Below, in pieces: positions 46,722-64,000 of a DNA stretch of 64,000 nt. The stretch covers positions 99,347 through 163,346 of the forward strand of contig NIVC01002941.1 of NCBI GenBank assembly GCA_002269645.1. The letters are read 5' to 3'. The notes below the pieces were generated by a model that worked only from the letters and a program-made list of their open reading frames with translations, had not been told where the DNA came from and made no database searches. A program made the translations under genes and the position numbers. Source of the DNA: Macrostomum lignano. Lineage: Eukaryota. Within the stretch, counting starts at the first letter, position 1. Each line of letters begins with the position of its first letter.

Positions 46722-49700
46722 TCAGATCTCTTTCAACCGATTCTCCAGCTCAGGAAAGGCCATTAGCAGCAGCATTTTGTTATACTTCATGACGCTTTTC
46801 ACCGAGTCAAACGACACGGAATGACCTGTGAACCAGGTGCGCCTGAAGCCCTGCACTTGGTCAAGGATTCGCCACAGAACCCCATCGGCGATTTCCGGTA
46901 TGGTGTATCGAGGCATGTAGTTGAAGGTTATTGAGGCCAGGGTGTCGCCACTAGCCAGGGGGTCGTGAGCTTCCGGCGCTGTCTGCAGGTCGCTGCTTGA
47001 GCCTTCCGAATTGGAGTAGCCTGACAGGTAGTAGGCTACGATGGTGGAGGAGGCTGGAGTCTCCGGGCTTCGATTGAAATCTGGCGAGTTCAGAGCCAGT
47101 TCGGAGTTGCGAATGGCCAGGAGCCGATCGAGACTGGGGCTGCGGATTGCCGTGCGGGGGTTGATATTAGGGGGGTGCAGACTGTGAGTAGAGGGTGTAA
47201 CTGTGAAGGATCGCCACAGAGGGTGTAGAATGTGAGTTGAGGGTGTAGACTGTGAGGGGAGGGTGTAGACTAATAGTAGAGGGTGTAGAATTTGAGTGGA
47301 GGGTGTAGACTGTGAGTGGAGGGTGTAGACTGTGAGTGGAGGGTGTAGACTTTTAGTGAAGGGTTTCGATTGAAGCTAGAGATGGAGCTGCTGCAGACAA
47401 TGGATTTCCATCACATACTTCTCCGTGTCCAGCTGGTCCAGGTAGTAGGCCACAGGGTGGGCCGCCACTTCCGGTTGACCGGAAAAGCGCACCAGCTTAG
47501 TCAGAAACTTTCTGGACTTCAGTCTGGAGAACACATCCTTCTCGGCCGGGGTCAGGTCATCCAACAGGCCGCCCGTGACCGCCTGCGCGCTGGGAGTCCA
47601 CACCAGCCAGTCCACCGTCTCCATGCTGTTGTCAAAGAATCGAATCTTGATGGGACGACCACCGCCACCACCGCTCCTGCTGACACCAACGACACGACTG
47701 TTCATGCGGAACTGCACACCGCCAGCCAGCTGGAGACGGTCGCGCGCCGACTCCCAGAAAGTCTGGGTGGATAGAATTCAATAATAACGATATGAAATGA
47801 GAGCTAAGATGGCCAGTTTACACTCTGGTGCTTTGGAGTGGGGTAGACTTTGGATTGAAGACAAGATCGTCAATGTACAGTCTAGCTTTGGTGGTATTGG
47901 GGTGGGGTAGGAATTAAAGATAAGCTCGCCTATGTACAGTCTAGCTTTGGTGGTATTGGAGTGGGGTAGGAATAGGAGATAAGATCGCCAATGTACAGTC
48001 TAGCTTTGGTGGTATTGGAGTGGGGTAGGAATAGGAGATAAGATCGCCAATGTACAGTCTAGCTTTGGTGGTATTGGAGTGGGGTAGGAATAGGAGATAA
48101 GATCGCCAATGTACAGTCTAGCTTTGGTGGTATTGGAGTGGGGTAGGAATAGGAGATAAGATCGTCAATGTACAGTCTAGCTTTGGTGGTATTGGAGTGG
48201 GGTAGAAATAGAAGATAAGATCGTCAATGTACAGTCTAGCTTTGGTGTTATTGGAGTGGGGTAGAAATTGAAGACAAGATCGTCAATGTACAGTCTAGCT
48301 TTGGTGGTATTGGAGTGGGGTAGAAATTGAAGATAAGATCGCCAATGTACAGTCTAGCTTTGGTGGTATTGGAGTGGGTAGGAATAGGAGATAAGATCGC
48401 CAATGTACAGTCTAGCTTTGGTAGCATTGGAGTGGGGGAGGAATCGAAATGGGTTGAAGATGGCAAGTAGAGCAATCTGTAATCACCTAATACAGAGCAC
48501 AAGAATGGTCGGGCGCACCTGGAATCCCTTGCGCAACATGCCGAGCCTGGACTCCTTCCGGGGCACCAGCAGGTCAGTCAGGTAGGCCTCCGACATCCAC
48601 ATGAGTCCGTAGAGAGCGGAGGTGTCGCTGGGACTGCCGTAGCCCATGGCGGTCATGCCGAACAGAAAGTAGGGCTCCAGAGCCAGCAAGCCGTTCTTCT
48701 CCAGATAGCTGAGCGCGCTGCAGTTCAACTTGGCCAGCGCCTCGCTTGACGGCTGGGCCAGCGGGAACTCCAGGAAGTCCGGCTGCTGGGCCGGATAGAG
48801 CTTTGAGCGCAGGCGGATGTAACGCTGACTGGCCTGCAGAATGTGCTGCTTGACCTCCTCATCGGATGCGTTGGGCCGCAGCGTTGGATCCAGGCGTCGA
48901 ACCCTGCCGAACACGAACTGCTCAAGGTCCATCTAGAAGTTGGAAAAGTTTCTTTCCTAACTTACGGATTTGCCACTTACTGGAGTGGTTGGAACCGTGA
49001 TCGGAGACAGTTCTGCTCATTCCACTGCCTCCTGAGCACACAAGCACGCCAAGACTGCACGCAGGCACCCACTCGTGCACACGCTCACACAGAGTGCACA
49101 GGGGCGCCAGCACCAGGGGCTTTAGCACCAGGGGCGCCAGCACCAGGGGCTTTAGCACCAGGGGCTTTAGCACCAGATGCTTTAGCACCAGGGGCGCCAG
49201 CACCAGAGGCGCCAGCACCAGGGGCGCCAGCACCAGGGGCGCCAGCACCAGGGGCGTCAGCACCAGAGGCGCCAGCACCAGGGGCGCCAGCACTAGGGGC
49301 GTCAGCACCAGAGGCGCCAGCACCAGGGGCGTCAGCACCAGAGGCGCCAGCACCAGGGGCGCCAGCACTAGGGGCGTCAGCACCAGAAGCGCCAGCACCA
49401 GGGGCGTCAGCACCAGAGGCGCCAGCACCAGAGGCGCCAGCACCAAGGGTGCCATCACCTGGGGCGCCAGCACCAGAAAAACTTGTGAACCAGCGCAGGA
49501 TCAGAACAGCGCAAAATTCAGTGCTACTGAAAACTCGCAAGTTTCGAGTTCAGGATCGCGGCCGACAGCTCATACCTGGCGAGCGGATGGCTCAGACGAT
49601 TCTCTGATCACCGCGGCAGGCAGGGTGGCTTCATCCAGATCGTAGCCGATGCCCTGAGCCATGCGGCGCAGGTCTCGGTAGTCGCTGCTCACGTAGCAGG

Positions 49701-49965
49701 TGCCCAACTCGTGCGGCAGCGGGTCCGCCTCCGAAACCTTCAGCGTGACGGAGCGCCCGCCGACCCGGCCGGAGGACTCCAGCACAAGGAGATTCTTGAA
49801 GCCCAGACTGCGGAGCAGGTAGGCCATATGCATCCCGGCTGGGCCGGCGCCCACAATGGCCACCCTCGAAGACCGGCTGGGCCGCTCGGCAGCTGTCGGC
49901 AGGCAGGCGGCGTCATGGTTGCTAAGCAACTGCAGCAGCAACAGCAGCAGCAGTGATGATGTCAT
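46722..49965 (-). CDS. Secreted FAD-dependent oxidoreductase, amine-oxidase fold, similar to polyunsaturated fatty acid isomerase; join(49576-49965,48519-48932,47419-47762,46722-47139), ~521 aa
   Basis: Leu-rich signal peptide; Rossmann motif VAIVGAGPAG and GG motif RVGGR; GYG motif; C-terminal QG..TW.TG...F. GT/AG boundaries with matching phases (0, 0, 2). Confidence 0.88.
47170..47362. repeat. ~20-bp intronic repeat (GAGGGTGTAGACTGTGAGT)
   Basis: Read directly. Confidence 0.85.
47860..48440. repeat. 59-bp intronic minisatellite, about 10 copies
   Basis: GCCAATGTACAGTCTAGCTTTGGTGGTATTGGAGTGGGGTAGGAATAGGAGATAAGATC. Confidence 0.93.
49100..49478. repeat. 15-bp intronic repeat (GCACCAGGGGCGCCA)
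   Basis: Read directly; explains the APGAP ORFs. Confidence 0.93.
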
Positions 49966-52870: not shown

Positions 52871-54630
52871 GCATCTTTATACTCTGGCAGAAATTGAGAC
52901 AGAGAAAGCAGAAGCGAAGAACAACAATACGAGTATAAGCACATGCATAAGCAGAAATGGCATGCAAATGTAGATTGTCTCAGAAAGTGTTCAGACAGGC
53001 CAGCCGTGAGCACCTCTGAGATCTCAGCAGCGCCGGCAGAAGCTGTAGATCACCAGGAGGCAATAAATTAGAGGGGTCGGCCTTGTAGGGACGGGGAATT
53101 TAATCAGTCCTGGGTCTGCTATGGATTTTGTACATGCGAGCTCACGCGGGGCGTCCCAGAGGCTGGCTGATATATAATTACCTCAATAGCCATAAAACAC
53201 GATTTCCAGTCTTTACAAGGCCGCCGATTCTTGTTTTTCCATCGATAAATAAAATTCCGCACTGACTACTTGCAACTGAGACTGGCAAAAAATTAATTAA
53301 TTTGATAACTATGCGAGACAGACTGCACGTTTCTTTTGGCTCAAAGGTTGTTGGAAAAATTTATTGCAGAAAACCGCTGCATGGGAATTGCATATAGGAC
53401 TCGCCATCTTCATTGGCTCCTGGTTTGGCAGTCCTGAGCCTTGATCATCAGTATATTAAACTCTCTAGCCCTTTCGACGATTTATAATTTCGAGCTTGTG
53501 ACAGCTAACCCTTTTTCGACTCACCGATATGTTACGTTAAACAATTTTTAAGGCAGTTTTTTCACGAAGAAACGCATGCACTTTTGCGAGTGTTTCTTGA
53601 AAACAGAAACCTGCATCATTACGCTCGTAACAGGAAGCAGCACCTGGATCAGTTGGCGTGCTATCAAAAGCTTCTGCGGCATTGCAGGAAATCTGAGGAA
53701 TTTGCTTGGCTTCCAGAATGCACAAGTTAATTAACGCTGGCCCCGATCGTGCAGCCCTTTTCACAATAGCATGTAGCGGAAGTACTCGAAATTCAACAAT
53801 TTCTGCAAACACGTCCAGCTCACTAATTAAATCCCAGCTACTCACTTGTCTGTTTTCAATCGATCCGAAGGGATCTATTTCAGTAGTATGGGATAACAGA
53901 ACTCTGCCGCAGGAATTTCCGTGGAAAAGCCATGGGCCCTAGTGAGTGAACATACGGGCCTATGTAAATCCATTGAGCGACTCTGCCGCAGGGCAGGCCA
54001 TGGAAATTCCGTGAGACCTCCTAGTGAGAGTACATTGGTGCAAGTATTTGCGAATGGGGTGGGGCTCCGCGGGAATTCCGTTAACCGCAATGAATGAGTA
54101 TTGGCAAATGCGTGTTCTGCTACGACGGACACAGGCGGTTCGGTTCATAAAACCAGGCAATGCTTTGCTTCTGAATGACATTTAATATTCCATCGGGTAT
54201 CGTAAAAGGAGGAGGGGCGTGTCTTTATTTCAATGATTACAATAAAATCAATTTGCAATTCATGTCTAAAATTTGAGCTACCAACTGTTGAAAAATCACT
54301 TGATTTTGGAATTTAAGGATTTTGGAATTTTGGAATTAATTGAAACTTTTGCCTATTAATTAGGCAAAAGTTTCAATAACAAGATGCTGCTTTAATAAGA
54401 TTATAATAGCCAAGCATCTCCCCCTTTCTTGGGGTGGTGGGTGTGTTGCTAAATGGAATTGGACGCTCAATAATTATCAGTTTTATTGCTCCCCAGTCTG
54501 GTCGGGAGTTCCAGTTGGCGGCAAGTGCAAAGGAACTTTTGTACATGTATGCTTTCAATAGAGGCTCTGTATCTGGGTTTTCTAATAAAATTATTTTAAA
54601 AAACCGGTTTCTGAGACGGCTGGGTTACTG

Positions 54631-54724
54631 ACTGTAAACATAGCTAAGCTGTAAACATAGCTAAGCTGTAAACATAGCGGCTATGTTTTTATTAACACAG
54701 ATTCGAATAAGCGAGGTATATAAG
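54631..54724 (+). promoter_or_regulatory. Candidate promoter: three TGTAAACA (forkhead-type) repeats, a palindrome and a TATATAAG box upstream of ORF 54819
   Basis: 17-bp unit CTGTAAACATAGCTAAG repeated; AAACATAGC-G-GCTATGTTT palindrome at 54670-54688; TATATAA at 54717-54723. Confidence 0.55.
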
Positions 54725-54818: not shown

Positions 54819-55997
54819 ATGAATAAATCGCGCTGCCCTTCATATGTGTACGAGGTATGCATTTCCTGCAACTCATGTGAGCTCGGTGGCTTAAAACGTC
54901 ACAAAATGAAAAGCAGCTGCAATGTCAGTCGCTGGCTGCTTTGCCACGAGTGCCAGACGCGTGAGCTCTTTAATGTGCGCCAGCAAGTTCGAGCTCACAA
55001 AAACCACATTATTATTAACTGGAGCTCACCTGGAGATTTAAAACGAGCCCGCTTTGCTGCCTTGGAGGCTGCCCAGCGTCAAGAGCAGCTCAACATTATC
55101 GAGCGCAGTCGAGCACCGGTCAGCGCACTCAGCCAGACAATTCAGGGCGTCTTTCAGCAGCCTGATGAAGATTTTCAGCACGCTACCGATGCAAACTTTG
55201 ATCTGCTTGCCGCTGCACTTGCCGCTGTGGAGCAGCAATCAGATTTTTTTGGTTCAGCCGCTGCGCCAGCTGCTGATGCCGGCCTCCCAGCTGACGGTGC
55301 CGGCCTTCCAACTACTGATGCCGGCCTCCCAGCTGACGGTGCCGGCCTTCCAACTACTGATGCCGGCCTCCCAGCTGACGGTGCCGGCCTTCCAACTACT
55401 GATGCCGGCCTCCCAGCTGACGGTGCCGGCCTTCCAACTACTGATGCCGGCCTCCCAGCTGACGGTGCCGGCCTTCCAACTACTGATGCTGGCCTCCCAG
55501 CTGACGGTGCCGGCCTTCCAACTACTGATGCCGGCCTCCCAGCTGACAGTGCCGGCCTTCCAACTGCTGATGCCGGCCTCCCAGCTGGCAGTGCCGGCCT
55601 TCCAACTGCTGATGCCGGCCTCCCAGCTGACGATTCCACTGGTTTTGCAGCTCCTTCGGAGTTGGATACTGCCTTCTTCGAGGATGTCGATTTGGAGCCT
55701 GTTGAGCTGGCAAATGAAGAAGCTGAGCAGCAACAGATGCCACCCTACAGGCCTGTTCCAGTCGCAGGAAAAAATATGGAGCAAGCCAGAATGATGGCAG
55801 AAGCAAGCCTATCCGATCTCCTGCGAGAATTCGAACCTCCTACTCCACCGGCTGCACCAGAAATCCAAACCGGTGACATCCCAGTCGTAGAAGCCATGCC
55901 ACCGATGCCACCGTCAGTCTGCATTCAGCTGGTACTACCGAGCAGAGTCGAGGGCGAGTATTTTATTGACCTTGGGGAGGAACTCGCATTCGCTTAA
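54819..55997 (+). CDS. Polinton-associated 392-aa protein: N-terminal CxxC...H zinc-finger-like motifs, 14-aa repeats (42-bp unit, 55275-55630), acidic/Pro-rich C-terminus
   Basis: Long ORF with non-repetitive flanks, an upstream TATA box and a downstream AATAAA (56197-56202); CISC...KRHK and CHEC...RAHKNH. Confidence 0.65.
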   Translation: MNKSRCPSYVYEVCISCNSCELGGLKRHKMKSSCNVSRWLLCHECQTRELFNVRQQVRAHKNHIIINWSSPGDLKRARFAALEAAQRQEQLNIIERSRAPVSALSQTIQGVFQQPDEDFQHATDANFDLLAAALAAVEQQSDFFGSAAAPAADAGLPADGAGLPTTDAGLPADGAGLPTTDAGLPADGAGLPTTDAGLPADGAGLPTTDAGLPADGAGLPTTDAGLPADGAGLPTTDAGLPADSAGLPTADAGLPAGSAGLPTADAGLPADDSTGFAAPSELDTAFFEDVDLEPVELANEEAEQQQMPPYRPVPVAGKNMEQARMMAEASLSDLLREFEPPTPPAAPEIQTGDIPVVEAMPPMPPSVCIQLVLPSRVEGEYFIDLGEELAFA

Positions 55998-56699: not shown

Positions 56700-59600
56700 A
56701 TGGCCACCTCATCGAGTCAAGAGGACGAGCCGGTGGACCCAGCTGTCAGCCACGAATTTGGACCGAGTGGTAAGTTTTTTCATTCCATTGCTGGTTTTAT
56801 GAACTCATGCATTTCTGTTTGTTGCATTCCTGTCTCTTAGCAACGGAATTATTTATATTTTTCTCGCCTACACAACAATTCCCAAATGGTTCCCAACAGG
56901 ATTAAGCCGGAGAACTCACAATAATGAGACATTTTTATTCCTCATTAGATGAATTGACAAAAATGCGAAAGCAGAACTCCATCTATTTCTTCAATAATAA
57001 CTCTTCAAATTCTTTTTTTACACTTATACGTAGCTCGTATTGATTAATAAAAAATATTAAATCTAGATATAAGGTAGTAGGATAAATAGTATACTCGTAA
57101 GTGTAAAAAAGGGCAATAAAATATTCGACTTCCATAACTCCCAGAGACATTTCTCATCATTTCCACTTTCCATAAATATTTTTAATACTATCTTCCCTTC
57201 TTCAATTGTAGGACCTTCATTCACCCTGGCGTTAAAAACCAGCGCTCACGAAGATGTTCTTCAAGTTCATCGATTTACACCTGGAGCTGCCACTGAAACA
57301 TTCGAGTTTCTCGATTTCTGCAAAATCGCAGTGCAGCAGTGTCTTGAAATTCGCTTCGACTCTTCGGATAATTGCTCTGTTAAAGCTCAGATCAAACTGA
57401 ATTTGCGCATGGTCAGAGTGCAGGCGTCAGAAGCTGTCAAGGGGGAGGATAAATGGATGAGCACACAACTCGGATTGGTGGTAGATATACAGGAGTTTGA
57501 TGATTGGTGGAGACAGCAGTTTACAGAGCTGGAGCGCAAAGTCGATGTCTACAACACCAACGGTAGTGGCTGGATAATTGAAAAAATCAATTTTTTTGAA
57601 CTTTACTCAGCTCTCGTCGAACGAGTTTCCTACTACACGGGGCATGCTGCGGAATTTATTCTACCGACTCCACTTCTTCGGAAGAAGGCGGTTATTTGTC
57701 CTCCAAGCAATGGTGTAAATTGCTTTCTTTACGCATGCCTTGCTTTTCTGCACAAGGAAGACAACAAAATAAAGAAATCAGCGCAACGCGAGTCTTCCTA
57801 CACTGACTGGCTGGATGAACTTAACATGAGTGGAATTGACTTGCCAATCAATGTCACCGACCTTTCCATTGTTGAGAGACTGAACCCGAGACTTTGCTTC
57901 ACGGTTTTCATCTGGGAGAAAGAGAGCGCTCAAGTCCTCCGCTTGCCTACTGCAGCTACAATTAAAGATCGAGAAGTTGTTCTACTCTTATTTATTCCAC
58001 CATCAGAAGACGAGGCCTCGGGTCATTGGTGTGCTGTTTCAAGCATCAACAGGCTTCTTAATAGCAAGGCAGCTCTGCATCGGCGGAAGTGGTGTGAGCG
58101 CTGCTTGCTGCCCTTTCATAGTGATGCAGCCTTTGAAGAACACAGCCGAGCTCCTTGTCAACCTGGAGTGATCAACGTCAAGGAAGAGTTGCCAGATGAA
58201 AGGAATAATATTCTCCGATTCTCATCATGGGAAAAAACAATTAGTCCGCCATTTGTTGTTTACGCCGACTTCGAAGCATTGAATGCTCCATGCCAAGAAG
58301 ATTCGATTGCTGGTATAGCAACGAAGAAGTTAACTGAGCACATTGCTGTTGCTGCTGGCTACATCGTGCTGCACAGAGAAGGGATGACTGGTCTAGCGCC
58401 CAGAGGAGCGGATGATAAAGTGAGCACTTTTGTCAGCGACGATCCTAATAAGTGCATTTCCGATTTCCTGCAATCGCTGGAGAAGCTCGCTCGTGAAGTT
58501 TACGGCTGGAACACGGAGTTCAGTCGACAAGCAGCGATAAGAACAGAGATGGCAGGGCGACAGTTCAGAGAAGCCACAGCTTGCTGCTATTGTAGAAGCG
58601 AATTCACGGAAGGGTCCAATAAACATTGGGATCACGACCACCTCAGCGGAGAATTTCGGGGAGCTGCGTGTGCTGATTGTAATATGAAGGCCAGACTAAA
58701 GAGGTCTTTCCTTCCCGTCGTGTTCCACAATTTCAAGGGGTACGATCTCCATCTCATGATGTCATCCGCTTTGGGTCTGATGGAGGGTTGGAAAATCTCC
58801 GTCATCCCTCTGAATCCAGAGCAGTTTCTGTCGATGAAAATCGAATTTAAAATCGGCGAGTATGAGAGTGAGGGCAAGATCAAGCCTTTAAATTTTACTA
58901 TTCAGTTCATTGATTCGAATCAATTTCTTAATGCCAGCCTCTCACAGCTCATCAAAAATTTACCAGAGGCTGAATGTCGTATCACTAGTCGCCTACGCAG
59001 CAGCAGATTCCCACTGCTATCATCCGAAGTGCTTTTCAGCAAGGGAGTTTTCCCGTATGACTATCTTAAAAATTCAGACGTGCTGAAGGATGCCGTGCTT
59101 CCCAGCCAAGAGAGCTTCTACAATGCTCTGACTAAGAGCCACTGCACCAACTCTGACTATGAGCATGCTCAACGCGCCTGGCGAGAATTTCAGGTTTCAA
59201 ATCTAAAAGAGTACATGCTGTGCTACCTCGAGCTCGACATCAGGCAGTTGGCTGATATTTTTGAAAATTTTCGCAAGATCAGCATGCAAGAGGATGGCCT
59301 TGATCCAGTCCATTTTATTTCGACACCAGGCCTATCATTCGCTTCGGCATTGAAATCCATCAAGTCAGGGATTGAACTGCTAACAGATGCGCAGATGTAT
59401 TCGCTGTTTGAGCGCGGCATTCGCGGCGGCATGTCGTTTGTTAACATCCACAAAGTGCAGGCTACCTCAGCAGCGGGCGCCAGCACTGGTGTTGACAGCA
59501 ATGAGGATGTTGATGGTGGCACTCCTACTATTCATGCTGGCCTCACCGAGCTTCTTGCTGTGGATGCAAACAACCTGTATGGACAGGCGCTCACTATGAA

Positions 59601-60854
59601 CTTACCAGTCGGAGGATTCCGTTGGCTGGACGATGATGAGCTGCTTTTGTGGACTGAAGATCGCATTCGAGGACTCAAGCTAACCGATCCACTCGCCTAC
59701 CTCTTTGATGTTGACCTTGAGTATCCCCCAGAGATTCACGAAACCACCGAAGACCTACCATTTGCACCGGAAAAGGCTGCCCCGAATTTCAGGGAATTTC
59801 CTGAATACATGCAGCAGCTGTGGGAAAAGGTCGGTACGGAGAACTCCACCTATCATCCGACAGAGAAGCTGATGCTCACTTGTCACGATAAGCCTTCCTA
59901 TGTGGTTCATTCCTCTATTTTGGCGTTCTACCTGAACCATGGAATGCGGGTTAGACGCATCAATCGCATGATTGAGTTTCACCAAGAGCCTCTCTTTGCT
60001 GCCTACGTCGAGAAAAATAGCCAGAAGCGGGCTGCAGCGAAAACCAACTTCGAAAAGGATTTCTACAAGTTAAAGAATAACGCGCTATTCGGCAAAACTA
60101 TGGAGAATGTGCGAAAGCGGCGTGATATTCGAGTCTGCACCAACGTGGAAAAGGTAAAGGTACTGCTTGCCAAGCCGACAATTACCAATTTTATCATAAT
60201 TACTGATTCACTAAGCGTTTTGGAACTGCAAAAGACAAAATTAAAGCTCGATCGGCCTATTTTTATCGGGCAATGCGTCCTAGACTTTTCGAAAATGATT
60301 ATGTACGAGCTGTTTTACGACAAACTGAAGCCCTGGATAGAGAACGATGGAGGTGTCATCAAGCTATGCGGTGGTGATACCGATTCTTTCTTTCTCTCAA
60401 TCAGCAACATGAGCGTTCAGTCTAAAGTTCTACCGCTGTTGAAGTCGAAGCAGCTGCTCGACACTTCAAACTATCCTCAAGAGCACGCGCTATTCTCGAA
60501 TGATTTAAAAGCGCGACTTGGCTGCATTAAGGATGAAGCAGCCGGTGCTCGCTTTGAGGAGTGGCTGCTCCTAAGGCCGAAGCTTTACTCATTCAAGGCG
60601 AGTAGCCAAGCCGCGGAAAAGAAGAAGGCCAAAGGAGTTCAAGGATGCATTGTTAAGAAAGAGCTGGCTCACAGTGACTACCTAAGGGTGTTCAATGAGC
60701 TCTGCAGCCATTCTGTCGTTGTTCATCGTATTGCCAGCATCCATCACCGACTGTACACTTTGCAGCAGCGGAAGTGTGCCTTAAGCATTTGGGAAGACAA
60801 GCGCGCTTGGCTGAGCCCTAACTATAGTCTCCCATTTGGTCACATTCGGCTGCT

Positions 60855-60923
<69 letters not shown>

Positions 60924-61011
60924 GCAACAGCAGCAACAACAACAACAACAACAACAACAACAGCAGCAGCAACAGCAGCAGAAATCATCAAAACGGCGCC
61001 GACTACTTTGA
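56700..61011 (+). CDS. Protein-primed family B DNA polymerase of the Polinton; predicted join(56700-56769,57212-61011)
   Basis: ExoI YADFE, ExoII HNFKGYD, KGVFPYDY, PolA DANNLYG, PolB KLKNNALFGKT, PolC GGDTDS, RPKLY, KAKGV. Endonuclease-VII-like 'DHDHLSGEFRGAACADCN'. No ATG lies in frame upstream, but a phase-matched GT-AG intron supplies one. Confidence 0.95.
60856..60981 (+). repeat. In-frame (CAG/CAA)n tract encoding ~41 Gln at the PolB C-terminus
   Basis: Read directly. Confidence 0.95.
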
Positions 61012-61571
61012 AATTGAATAATGAGTACAACAAGCTTGCTAAACAAAAACAATAATTTCTTTGCGATTTCAAAGTTTCTTTCTTTGACATTGAATAAAGG
61101 TTAACCGCTAATCTAAATAGGATTTTTTCCAAATGCAATAAAAACTTTGATCATCTGCTGAGGCTAGCAACAATTTTTTGCTTCACAATATTTACTTACA
61201 ATTGCGCGATGATGATAATGAAACCAATGCTTCGTTAGTGGTGGTGGTGGTGTTTGCGGTGATGGCATGTGAGAGTTTTATTTTTTTCTAATTTTACCTG
61301 TACTTTGTGGTTGGTTTTTTGAATCCTGATATTGCTTTATAAGTTTTAATATATTCCATCTGCTTTTGGACTATTTTTTCCTATTTTTGTAGTGGTTTAT
61401 CTGCTTGCTCGTATTTGCTTTTAGCTTGCTATTTGTTTATCTCTACAAGATGTTCACCACTGGTTTTTCATTGCAATTAAAAATGAAGACAAAAAAGCTA
61501 GTGCATGAGAGAGAATTAATTTGAATATTTTAATTAAACAAGCCGCGATTTATTCTTTCTTTTTATTTATT

Positions 61572-62137
61572 TCAGTTTGAAAGCAAGCAAGCTAATAGGG
61601 AACGGTCTGATTGTAGCATATGCTTAGACTTTGCTCCGCTGAGCACAAATGAGCCATTGTGAAAAAGCGTACACTTGCAGTATTGAAGCTGACAAACTAA
61701 AGCAGTAAAACTTTCAGGTTCATATTTCGCATTCGGTAGCACTTCACAGAGGTTTCTTAGTGATAGAGCCTTGGGCAAGTCTATTTTTCCATAAGCAGTA
61801 ATAGTCTTAATTCGGACACAAACGGATTGACGAGGCAGCAGTTGAGGCGGAACTCTGCGATGCAGCATAGCCACGAAGCGACGGGCAGCCTTGACTGAGG
61901 CCGAGTAGCTCCGGGCGCCACAGATACTCAGTTGTCCAGTCGGATAGAGCAACAGAGTCACTCTGGGATTCCGCATCCTCTTGATGAGCACTCGGGCCAG
62001 ACGGGGCGATAGATGACATGAGCCATGCTGAGAGCCAGTTCCCGCAGAGGCAACTGGGCACCCCTGCCTCCAGCCAGCCTCAGATCCACGCCGCCAACCA
62101 GATTGGTCACTCGCAGGGCTGTCGCAGGTGTACTCAT
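61572..62137 (-). CDS. Divergent TATA-box-binding protein (TBP)-like protein in the Polinton; one -1 frameshift at ~62004
   Basis: ATG at 62137 gives MSTPATALRVTNLVGGVDL...LPLRELALSMAHVIYRP. This continues in the track's frame as RLARVLIKRMRNPRVTLLLYPTGQLSICGARS...AARRF and RIKTITAYG...YEPESFTAL...TLFHNGSFVLSGAKS. Both TBP repeats are present. Confidence 0.85.
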
Positions 62138-62154
62138 TTAGAGAGTCCTTTCTG

Positions 62155-62651
62155 TCAGTGGTGCTGTCTTTGAGAGCCTTTGAGTGGTGCGGGCACACCT
62201 CGCTTCTTAAGTTGATACAGAACTTTGGCTTCAGCCAGTTGTAGTAGAGCAATACATTTTTCACTGCACAACCAGTATCAGATGCTTGAATCAAAGGTGA
62301 TCCCAGATCCTCTAGGTTGTACACCTGTCTGCCAAGCAGCTCAGTCAGAAAGATGGACTTTTTCACCCCGCTTGTCCAGGTGGGGCCGTAAGCAATGTTT
62401 AGAATGTCATTTGCCAAATGCATGTACGATCGGGATCCATCTGTCCACTTGAAATGATGCAAATTCTTTGAGAGCTTTCTGTAATGCACCTGCATCTCAG
62501 GTGAGATTCGCTCCCATGAGAACGGAGAGGCGTACACGTGATGAGTGATATGGTAACTGCCTGCCCGGACTTGGGCAATGGCTAGCTCCTTCACAACGAA
62601 ATCTCTGCTCGATCTCTCGCGTGGGAAGCCTTGGAAGTCAATATAGTTCAT
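62155..62651 (-). CDS. Polinton DEDD/DnaQ-like exonuclease-fold protein (C-terminal boundary uncertain)
   Basis: IDFQGF...FVVKELA...SPFSW...HHFKWTDG...EDLGSP...CAVKNV...W pattern, seen in small exonuclease-like ORFs of invertebrate Polintons. Confidence 0.6.
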
Positions 62652-62691: not shown

Positions 62692-63383
62692 TCAGTTCCC
62701 CTTCTTAAATAGTTTTTTCCTGTTCAGCTGTAGCCAAGCTCTCCCACTCCCGAATCCTTTAACTGTATGATGAGCAGGGGCGGCCTCTGGAGAAACAGCA
62801 GGTTTAGAAATTAGCTGCCTAACTGACTTTCCTATGGCCGAAGCTGGGATGTTAAGCTTTTTATCTTGGAGCAATGAGACAAACTCACTCCAGCCCACCG
62901 GCTCGCTGGCACATTTCGAATCCCTCACGGCACTGTGAAACAAATCCAGGATGTTTGAGGAGGGTATTGTCTTCCCACAAATTTGCGCCTCGCCATTTTC
63001 GGACACCCGAATCAGAGAAGGATTGCCAGATAGGATGGCCCATAGACTGCGGGCTCTCGCTTTAAACTTCTGCGGCACGGATTGGGTGATCTTTTCCCCC
63101 AGCTGCTTGGTGCAATATCAGTTTTCAGCATCTTTGCATCACTCGCAGGTACCGCATCATCCTTTCCAGTCCGCTTGCGCTTGGCCAGCAAACTCTTCAT
63201 CGCATCATGGTACATGGCAGCTTTCACATCGTCTGGGCAATCCTCGGCAAGCAAAATATCATTGCATTTCCTCTGCGCATATCTCACAGCAGTGTCGAGT
63301 TCAGACTCAACTGGCTTCAAATTCTGTGTGAGCATGTCGTATTCTGACTTGGGGATCAGAACCATTTCTGAGAACTTATTCAT
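62692..63383 (-). CDS. Conserved Polinton hypothetical protein, split by a 1-bp frameshift at ~63096-63100
   Basis: N-part MVLIP...IL...PDDVKAAMY and C-part GE..I.G..IP.SNILDL...P.GW..F...L...NIPASAIG join if one G is added to the G5 run. Confidence 0.65.
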
Positions 63384-63693
63384 TTTGTTTCTTTTTCTTC
63401 ACTAGCTTTATTAGAATGTAGAGAATTTTGATAAAACCCGTATTTAGCAGATCCGCAGCTCTTCTATGTGTAGAAATTTTGCGGATTATTTGCTTTTGCT
63501 TCACTAGCGCTGCCTTTTCAGTGAGTGAGAACGACAGAGTGTTTTGCAATAGGTTATAGCAGGCCTCAATGAGAAATTCATGTACTGCTTTTGGACCCGC
63601 TCTGATCAACAGACGTTTAAAGCTGATGGAATATTTCGGTGAGGCGAGAACATCAAACAAACTTTCATGTGAGTCGAATGTTTCCATTATCAT
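63376..63693 (-). CDS. Conserved small basic Polinton protein downstream of the ATPase (~105 aa)
   Basis: 'FLIEACYNLLQNTL...KQKQIIRKI...GFIKIL' resembles the ORF that commonly follows the Polinton ATPase; its stop overlaps the next ATG (ATGAATAA). Confidence 0.6.
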   Translation of the reverse strand: MIMETFDSHESLFDVLASPKYSISFKRLLIRAGPKAVHEFLIEACYNLLQNTLSFSLTEKAALVKQKQIIRKISTHRRAADLLNTGFIKILYILIKLVKKKKQNE

Positions 63694-63740
63694 TAGTGTT
63701 GCAGAATATAGAGCAAATGGCAAAATCTCGGCTGTTATTC

Positions 63741-64000
63741 TTAAGTGTAAACCAGGTGGGGTCGCTGATTGGGCAGGATTCGAGCCCGGACCGCAGCTCA
63801 TCAGGGGTGGAAGGGTGAAAATCCAGGAGCAGGTAGGCTCCCCTGCCGTGCGATGTCACGTGCTTGAACACTGACAGCAGAAAGCCGGGCTTCTCAGCAA
63901 AACACTGCCTGCCCAGCGCCGCAATCTGCAGCTGGTCTCTGGGGTTCTTCATGATCACAAAGTACATCGCATTCAGACTCATTGTTCGCAACTCCTTCCC
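63741..64000 (-). CDS. Polinton A32/FtsK-like packaging ATPase, C-terminal part; 1-bp frameshift at ~63791
   Basis: GKELRTMSLNAMYFVIMKNPRDQLQI..LGRQ.F...YLLLDFHP.TPDELR; after frame correction it continues VRARILPNQRPHLVYT*. Confidence 0.88.

Follow-up and report, generated by a model that had tools for sequence, protein, structure and literature searches.

A divergent TATA-binding protein gene in Polintons of Macrostomum lignano and a candidate promoter box before their genes

Introduction

The TATA-binding proteins (TBPs; PF00352) of cells and archaea form a two-repeat saddle. According to the accessible parts of PMC1636458, the C-repeat binds the TATA box's 5′ half, P191 (yeast numbering, used throughout) is suggested to exclude all but T at position 1, position 2 is governed by residues 194, 203 and 205, and G at position 6 is accommodated by the wild-type protein. 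In the yeast variant TBPm3 (I194F, V203T, L205V), the C-repeat pocket next to position 2 is changed, as it is by V203→K in the TBP described here; the latter, however, is natural, involves other residues, and has a specificity that is read from upstream boxes alone.

TBP homologues of Nucleocytoviricota and mirusvirus-like elements share the viral TBP fold, and most carriers of this type encode their own RNA polymerase and TFIIB. In contrast, no RNA polymerase or TFIIB gene was seen among the ORFs of the Polintons studied here, and a TFIIB search gave 15 matches on 7 contigs, with no multi-copy family. Polintons and adintoviruses have no RNA polymerase, and the way in which their capsid and packaging genes are switched on is, to our knowledge, not settled.

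TBP genes have been reported in mirusvirus-like elements (PMC10675990, available portions). A TBP homologue in a Polinton-like genome is likewise indicated for the MELD viruses with an adintovirus-like PolB, where it is known only as the label 'TBP' in the legend of Fig. 5 of Starrett et al. 2021 (PMC8502044). The available passages of PMC8502044 and the preprint 10.1101/697771 give no function, promoter or distribution for that TBP, and one supplementary file does not contain the term. Nor is a Polinton TBP mentioned in the accessible parts of PMC10005294, PMC12220804 and 10.1101/2022.05.25.493380, and no paper on TBP as a Polinton gene, on such boxes or on the switching of Polinton genes was found in the literature covered, which was mostly non-subscription and did not include Repbase. 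An earlier note on this DNA did not know of TBP as a recognised Polinton gene. The legend label of Starrett et al., the one link of TBP to a Polinton-like virus in the literature covered, lowers the novelty that had been assumed.

The elements analysed here share with Polintons/Mavericks (adintoviruses) the PolB, chromodomain integrase, adenovirus-type protease and ATPase genes, repeats ending in AGTAGT, and 6-bp duplications. They differ from them in carrying a TBP gene, a PC4-like gene and lineage-specific promoter boxes.

Results

The window ends within a Polinton

The window, which is the whole stretch of 64,000 nucleotides analysed, ends within a Polinton of roughly 13 kb that is cut by the contig end. 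Only the left terminal inverted repeat (53882–54013), which begins AGTAGT, lies in the window. Inward of this repeat are a terminal ORF of 392 aa with tandem repeats (54819–55997, plus strand), preceded at about 100 nt by a TATATAAG box at 54717, and the gene for a protein-primed family B DNA polymerase (PolB; 57409–61011, plus strand; PF03175, E=7e-14), which is convergent with the TBP gene (61572–62137, minus strand). The remaining genes are all on the minus strand: a conserved Polinton ORF at 61810–62651 that we presume to be PW-like (281 aa in natural copies), a conserved ORF of 230–240 aa (62695–63383) that is broken near 63,090 in the window copy, a small conserved ORF (63376–63693) of about 105 aa from the ATG behind its box, listed within a 141-aa ORF, and the 3′ end of the packaging ATPase gene (63665–64000). 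The TBP gene is thus located between PolB and ATPase, as the earlier note had placed it, with three ORFs between it and the ATPase gene. The PW-like ORF has no Pfam match, and its relatives are unnamed clusters, most often from Arthropoda.

In sibling copies, the complete order is inverted repeat, PC4-like gene, integrase, putative minor capsid, small basic ORF, putative major capsid, protease and ATPase, followed by the two conserved ORFs, the PW-like ORF, TBP and the convergent PolB. The integrase (PF00665), which carries a chromodomain, and the adenovirus-type protease (PF00770) were identified by Pfam. The ATPase is assigned only by its P-loop motif and weak NTPase matches, and the PC4-like gene by a PF02229 match below the cut-off (E=8e-5). 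Two ORFs of 427 and 269 aa are conserved across lineages and have no Pfam matches; we take them to be the putative major and minor capsid proteins, respectively. The elements end in AGTAGT, and three of the four elements checked are flanked by a 6-bp target-site duplication. On the basis of PolB, integrase, protease, ATPase, inverted repeats and target duplication, the element is a Polinton/Maverick.

Several further features of the element and its surroundings were observed. A second transcription-related gene of families A and B is the PC4/p15-like one beside a terminal repeat (L033:7130-7855; L092:5795-6433), which is preceded by a TATATAAG- or TATATAAT-type box. The end of PolB (60850–60985 in the window) contains a long CAG/CAA polyglutamine tract, the length of which varies by 3 nt among sibling copies. 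The TBP gene is unbroken in copies that retain both inverted repeats but have lost most of PolB (L035-L037 in C84 and L088-L090 in C255). To the left of the element, at 47376–49965 on the minus strand, lie host-side ORF fragments that presumably belong to an amine-oxidase/FAD-dependent enzyme.

Reading frame of the TBP gene

The earlier note had recognised a complete two-repeat TBP core of about 188 aa within a 359-aa ORF, with the N-terminal strand in another frame, and both observations were borne out. The 359-aa ORF (61572–62651) matches PF00352 in two stretches (Pfam search, E=2.6e-19), while the N-terminal strand begins at a minus-strand ATG at 62137, immediately after a TAA. In natural unbroken copies the ORF is 187–188 aa long, and the window copy is frameshifted near 62,000. 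The proteins closest to the window TBP in the databases are labelled Macrostomum lignano. Behind the stop codon, where the earlier note had reported AATAAA, two such signals are found on the minus strand (61549–61571), at 61571 and 61554; contigs of two presumed-RNA runs stop at 61542 and 61504, which is a weak indication. The stretch between PolB and TBP is largely without cover in two of the three presumed-RNA runs, the contigs of which cover the TBP gene, a weak hint of expression.

A DNA search of the genome itself, in which the best 40 of 135 candidates were scored, provided sibling copies for comparison. An unbroken TBP ORF is present in 24 of the 30 loci fetched, and six, including the window, are broken. 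Over 3.8 kb, the window is separated from seven near-identical siblings by 0–3 substitutions, against as many as three single-base gaps. The break is absent from the short-read contigs of all three runs that cover the site (X1, X5 and X18; a further run, X12, has no cover there). Given the unbroken siblings, the single-base gaps against so few substitutions and the short-read contigs, the frameshift near 62,000 is probably an assembly error. Since one other contig, L002, carries the same break, it may alternatively represent a real mutant copy.

The tail of the PW-like ORF overlaps the 5′ half of the TBP gene in another frame, and the break in the window fuses the PW-like ORF to the TBP 3′ half. 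A programmed PW–TBP fusion was rejected, as the two occupy separate frames in most copies. The PW-like frame is open over the TBP 5′ half (61810–62137 in the window) for 109 codons in family A and 128 in family B, in the same relative frame, which is longer than expected under a codon-usage null (P=0.03 and P=0.003, respectively); this overlap may be maintained.

Fold and DNA-binding residues

The TBP fold was supported for a natural unbroken copy, which scores 79.8 bits against PF00352 (cut-off 22.9) over two stretches and matches 35 solved TBP sequences. Its predicted model (pLDDT 89.8, pTM 0.80) forms the saddle and superimposes on solved cellular TBPs with TM scores of 0.76–0.83 at 21–26% identity. 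The model is nearer to these (about 0.8) than to viral structures, including the Nucleocytoviricota and mirusvirus-like homologues (BFVD; up to 0.74). In comparison with cellular and archaeal TBPs, the element protein lacks the N-terminal extension, has a short insertion after strand 1, and is encoded in multiple copies inside Polintons.

Aligned with the host TBP, the element protein retains N69, V71, L114, E186, E188, F190 and F207, of which the E186/E188 stirrup and F190/F207 are kept in both families A and B, together with the GA[KR]S motifs. The changed residues are F116→Y, V122→S, T124→C, N159→T, P191→S/T and V203→K. Two of the four intercalating Phe positions, F190 and F207, are thus preserved, whereas F116 is Tyr and the F99 column is Pro with a Trp beside it. 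The alignment bears out what the earlier note gave for F116 (Tyr) and N159 (Thr), and likewise YEPESF and the pair of Phe in the C-repeat. The note's 'L/A' at the first N-repeat Phe had been taken from the broken frame, and unbroken copies read Trp-Pro there. In the central Asn pair N69 is kept, but since N159 is Thr the protein lacks the canonical N69/N159 pair and is classed as a divergent TBP-fold homologue rather than a canonical TBP.

TBP genes in other Polinton lineages and outside the genome

A PF00352 search of the genome, with the best 150 of 330 candidates scored, returned 12 entries for the host TBP and a TRF2-like gene (three contigs each), the rest being divergent copies. Of the divergent loci, 66 were examined (L001-L030 and L052-L087, where at least one place is represented twice), and each of them lies within about 1.5 kb of a Polinton gene, which supports the linkage to Polintons. 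Element copies account for well over a hundred of the genome's PF00352 matches and can pass for host TBP paralogues; UniRef names one of them 'TATA-box-binding protein'.

In family B, the TBP is 35% identical to that of family A and occupies the same position in a lineage with an integrase 57% identical. Among five further lineages, taken from the tail of an ATPase search, four have a more distant TBP-like ORF adjoining kinase and PolB. Three of these four ORFs match PF00352, two of them above the cut-off, and one has no Pfam match. TBP-like genes are hence present in six of the seven Polinton lineages sampled; for lineage F (C1390), no TBP was found in the copy examined, which has an N gap and no PolB. 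TBPs are the best matches (E 2e-7) of the model of a distant group-2 (C/D/E/G) protein, but with a TM score of only about 0.44 this model does not reproduce the saddle. TBP identities group the lineages into (A,B) and (C,D,E,G), as do those of ATPase and integrase.

The kinase and PolB genes follow closely behind TBP in lineages C, E and G. In the one copy of lineage D that was seen, the TBP-like domain is in frame with a deoxynucleoside kinase domain (L117:872-2290, minus strand); in lineages C and E the two are separate adjacent ORFs. An ATG is missing where the fold begins in several group-2 TBP-like frames (L112:6345-6893, L124:7874-8428 and L117) and is present in L120; its absence suggests splicing or trans-splicing, or else a start at a non-AUG codon.

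Outside this genome, three Logan proteins (66–72% identity) and a few ENA/JGI proteins belong to the A+B clade. Minimal TBPs of 170–210 aa on contigs of 7–19 kb share N159→T (P0049, P0120, P0136, P0058, P0042 and P0194), and may be Polinton TBPs of other hosts; further metagenomic relatives are P0015, P0021, P0176 and P0177. Viral contigs scanned with alignment A2 and with P0120 contained no relative, and a phage collection gave no match. A metagenome scan gave ten loci at 23–26% identity; those examined were ordinary cellular-type TBPs or unplaced, with none in the A+B clade.

Phylogeny and selection

In an IQ-TREE phylogeny of 47 sequences hand-picked from 176 aligned, the deep order of which is unresolved, the A+B TBPs form a clade with support of 100/98 and the C–G proteins one with 100/100, whereas the host TBP falls in the cellular clade (99/94). 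The element TBPs do not nest with the host TBP or TRF2. Family-A pairs have Nei-Gojobori dN/dS values of 0.15–0.48 (pairs led by three reference copies, dS above 0.08), which is not the pattern of neutral decay. The TBP gene is under purifying selection, unbroken in most copies and always inside Polintons. None of the outcomes that the earlier note had named as counting against its proposal, namely no TBP fold, no Polinton linkage or a decaying host retrocopy, was found.

The word 'captured' in that note needs qualification. A recent or family-specific capture is not supported, since lineages that split deeply share the gene, and its identities group in the same way as for ATPase and integrase. 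Nor is one common origin demonstrated for all Polinton TBPs, given that A+B and C–G are two clades.

Identity between subfamilies drops from about 97% to 60–70% near TBP codon 100–120 and stays low on toward PolB (61572–61840 in the window, against C84, C219 and C529). A recombination point thus seems to lie inside the TBP gene, with the C-repeat travelling with the PolB side.

Candidate promoter boxes

The earlier note had proposed that the protein reads a modified TATA sequence at the element's genes, and a candidate, YTTAAGAA, was found before the core genes. In the window, on the minus strand, a CTTAAGAA box (62204–62211) lies 74 nt before the TBP start as a candidate core promoter inside the upstream ORF, a TTTAAGAA box (62702–62709) lies 58 nt before the PW-like start, and a second CTTAAGAA box (63738–63745) lies about 52 nt before the small ORF. 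Boxes of this kind stand before the genes for the integrase, putative minor capsid and ATPase, and before the small core, PW-like and TBP genes, whereas the terminal genes (PC4-like and left ORF) have TATATAAG-type boxes.

Of the YTTAAGAA sites, 7 of 8 in subfamily A1 and all 8 in the diverged A3 lie on the coding strand 30–150 nt before a gene start, against a fraction of about 0.05 for such intervals, and none of 2000 random-start sets gave an equally good 8-mer, although the motif was picked after inspection and gene starts were set from ORFs and tblastn. Over the window as a whole, the motif is no more frequent than chance would give (4 sites, 5.2 expected). In A1, no box occurs within 150 nt of the protease or the 230-aa gene, and the putative major capsid gene in A1 and A2 has only CCTAAGAA. 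For the 64 TBP starts located, a YTTAAGAA-type box lies 65–80 nt upstream in 49 and CTATAAAA in 11, all of family B; four have neither. The shortest distances from box to ATG are 35–47 nt, a spacing that fits a TATA-type element. Three boxes lie inside coding sequence, and all are read as TTA-AGA, though TTA accounts for only 15 of 174 Leu codons.

Box sequence varies among lineages. In family A, the box found most often has C as its first base and T as its second, while family-B boxes mostly begin TATAA and include plain TATAAAA. In lineages C, D, E and G, the boxes are TATAAG[CT]A, starting with T, at 2/4, 3/5, 5/6 and 5/5 sites (by lineage, in no set order), and no box stands in front of their TBP genes.

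Discussion

The Polinton TBP is a real, selected and widespread gene with a well-positioned candidate target box, and represents a variant of the viral TBP. We consider it likely, judging from the protein and the placement of the boxes, that it is the element's own promoter-recognition factor, predicted to read YTTAAGAA and to recruit host TFIIB and Pol II. In such a scheme, the terminal genes would be fired by the host TBP, and the element TBP would first be made through weak reading of its own box. It would then amplify itself, in A and B, and switch on the core block via host TFIIB and Pol II. A single early–late scheme does not fit every lineage, as a box precedes the TBP gene itself in A and B and is lacking there in C, D, E and G.

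The changed DNA face (P191→S/T, V203→K, N159→T, V122→S and F116→Y) would explain the C or T at position 1, T at position 2 and G at position 6 of the box. Family A has lost P191, has K at 203 and uses C/T followed by T at positions 1–2, whereas C–G proteins keep P191 and use T-A. This link between residues 191 and 203 and the box is suggestive only, and is weakened by family B, which also lacks P191 and yet has boxes that mostly begin TATAA. The match between TBP clade and box amounts to two or three independent groups. Moreover, the TBP 3′ half has been exchanged between subfamilies with the box unchanged, which speaks against recognition by the element TBP.

That exchange, in which the family-A 3′ half travels with the PolB side, would be compatible with a different division of labour. 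Recognition of the box would then fall to another element protein or to the machinery of a helper virus, as in virophages, and the TBP would serve a different purpose, for instance bending DNA at the termini or at internal sites in replication or packaging. The position of TBP just upstream of kinase and PolB in C, E and G, and in frame with the kinase in D, would also suit such a role, as would the TAAG core common to all boxes. This core resembles the baculovirus late promoter. On the other hand, the boxes are TATA variants by sequence and stay at least about 35 nt from the ATG like a TATA box, which a start-site motif need not do, and no helper virus is known here. Promoter motifs of endogenous virophages have been taken to implicate different giant viruses (PMC8547959, in the parts available), but on balance we regard another reader of the box as unlikely.

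The boxes might instead be read by host TBP/TFIID. The element TBP would then be a decoy or repressor, sequestering TFIIB, NC2 or Mot1 or sitting on promoters, and would damp host genes or silence the element. In favour of this, the DNA face has changed heavily whereas the acidic C-terminal stirrup has been retained, and the boxes of family B include plain TATAAAA. As wild-type TBP tolerates G at position 6 (PMC1636458, available parts), the host TBP could read the boxes of B and C–G. The commonest box of family A, however, has T at position 2 and C at position 1, the latter reported in the same source as barred for wild-type TBP. In addition, the DNA-face residues N69, V71, L114, F190 and F207 are kept, and box type follows the TBP clade. 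We accordingly think a decoy improbable.

A retrocopy of host TBP or TRF that decays neutrally as a passive passenger is highly implausible: the gene does lack introns, the host TBP core likewise lies in one unsplit frame, and the window copy and five others of the 30 loci are broken, but identity is only about 25% to the host TBP (family B) or 22–26% to solved TBPs (family A), the same gene position recurs in lineages with integrases 57% identical, and the separate clade and a dN/dS well under 1 would rule such decay out unless both are artefacts, without thereby naming a donor.

Returning to the element TBP as a promoter-recognition factor, a fuller version can be put forward tentatively, at somewhat less than even confidence. 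Polintons would possess a private transcription switch without an RNA polymerase, in the form of an ancient, vertically inherited TBP that has been retuned to a lineage-specific TATA variant poorly read by the host TBP, and that amplifies itself in the window family. Because the TBP is paired with a defined 8-nt box, the question is testable by binding and reporter assays. Across the Polinton lineages, TBP also varies naturally at positions that bear on TATA specificity, and if the proposal is true, residues of the TBP would have changed in step with the promoter boxes from lineage to lineage, forming a natural series of altered-specificity TBPs.
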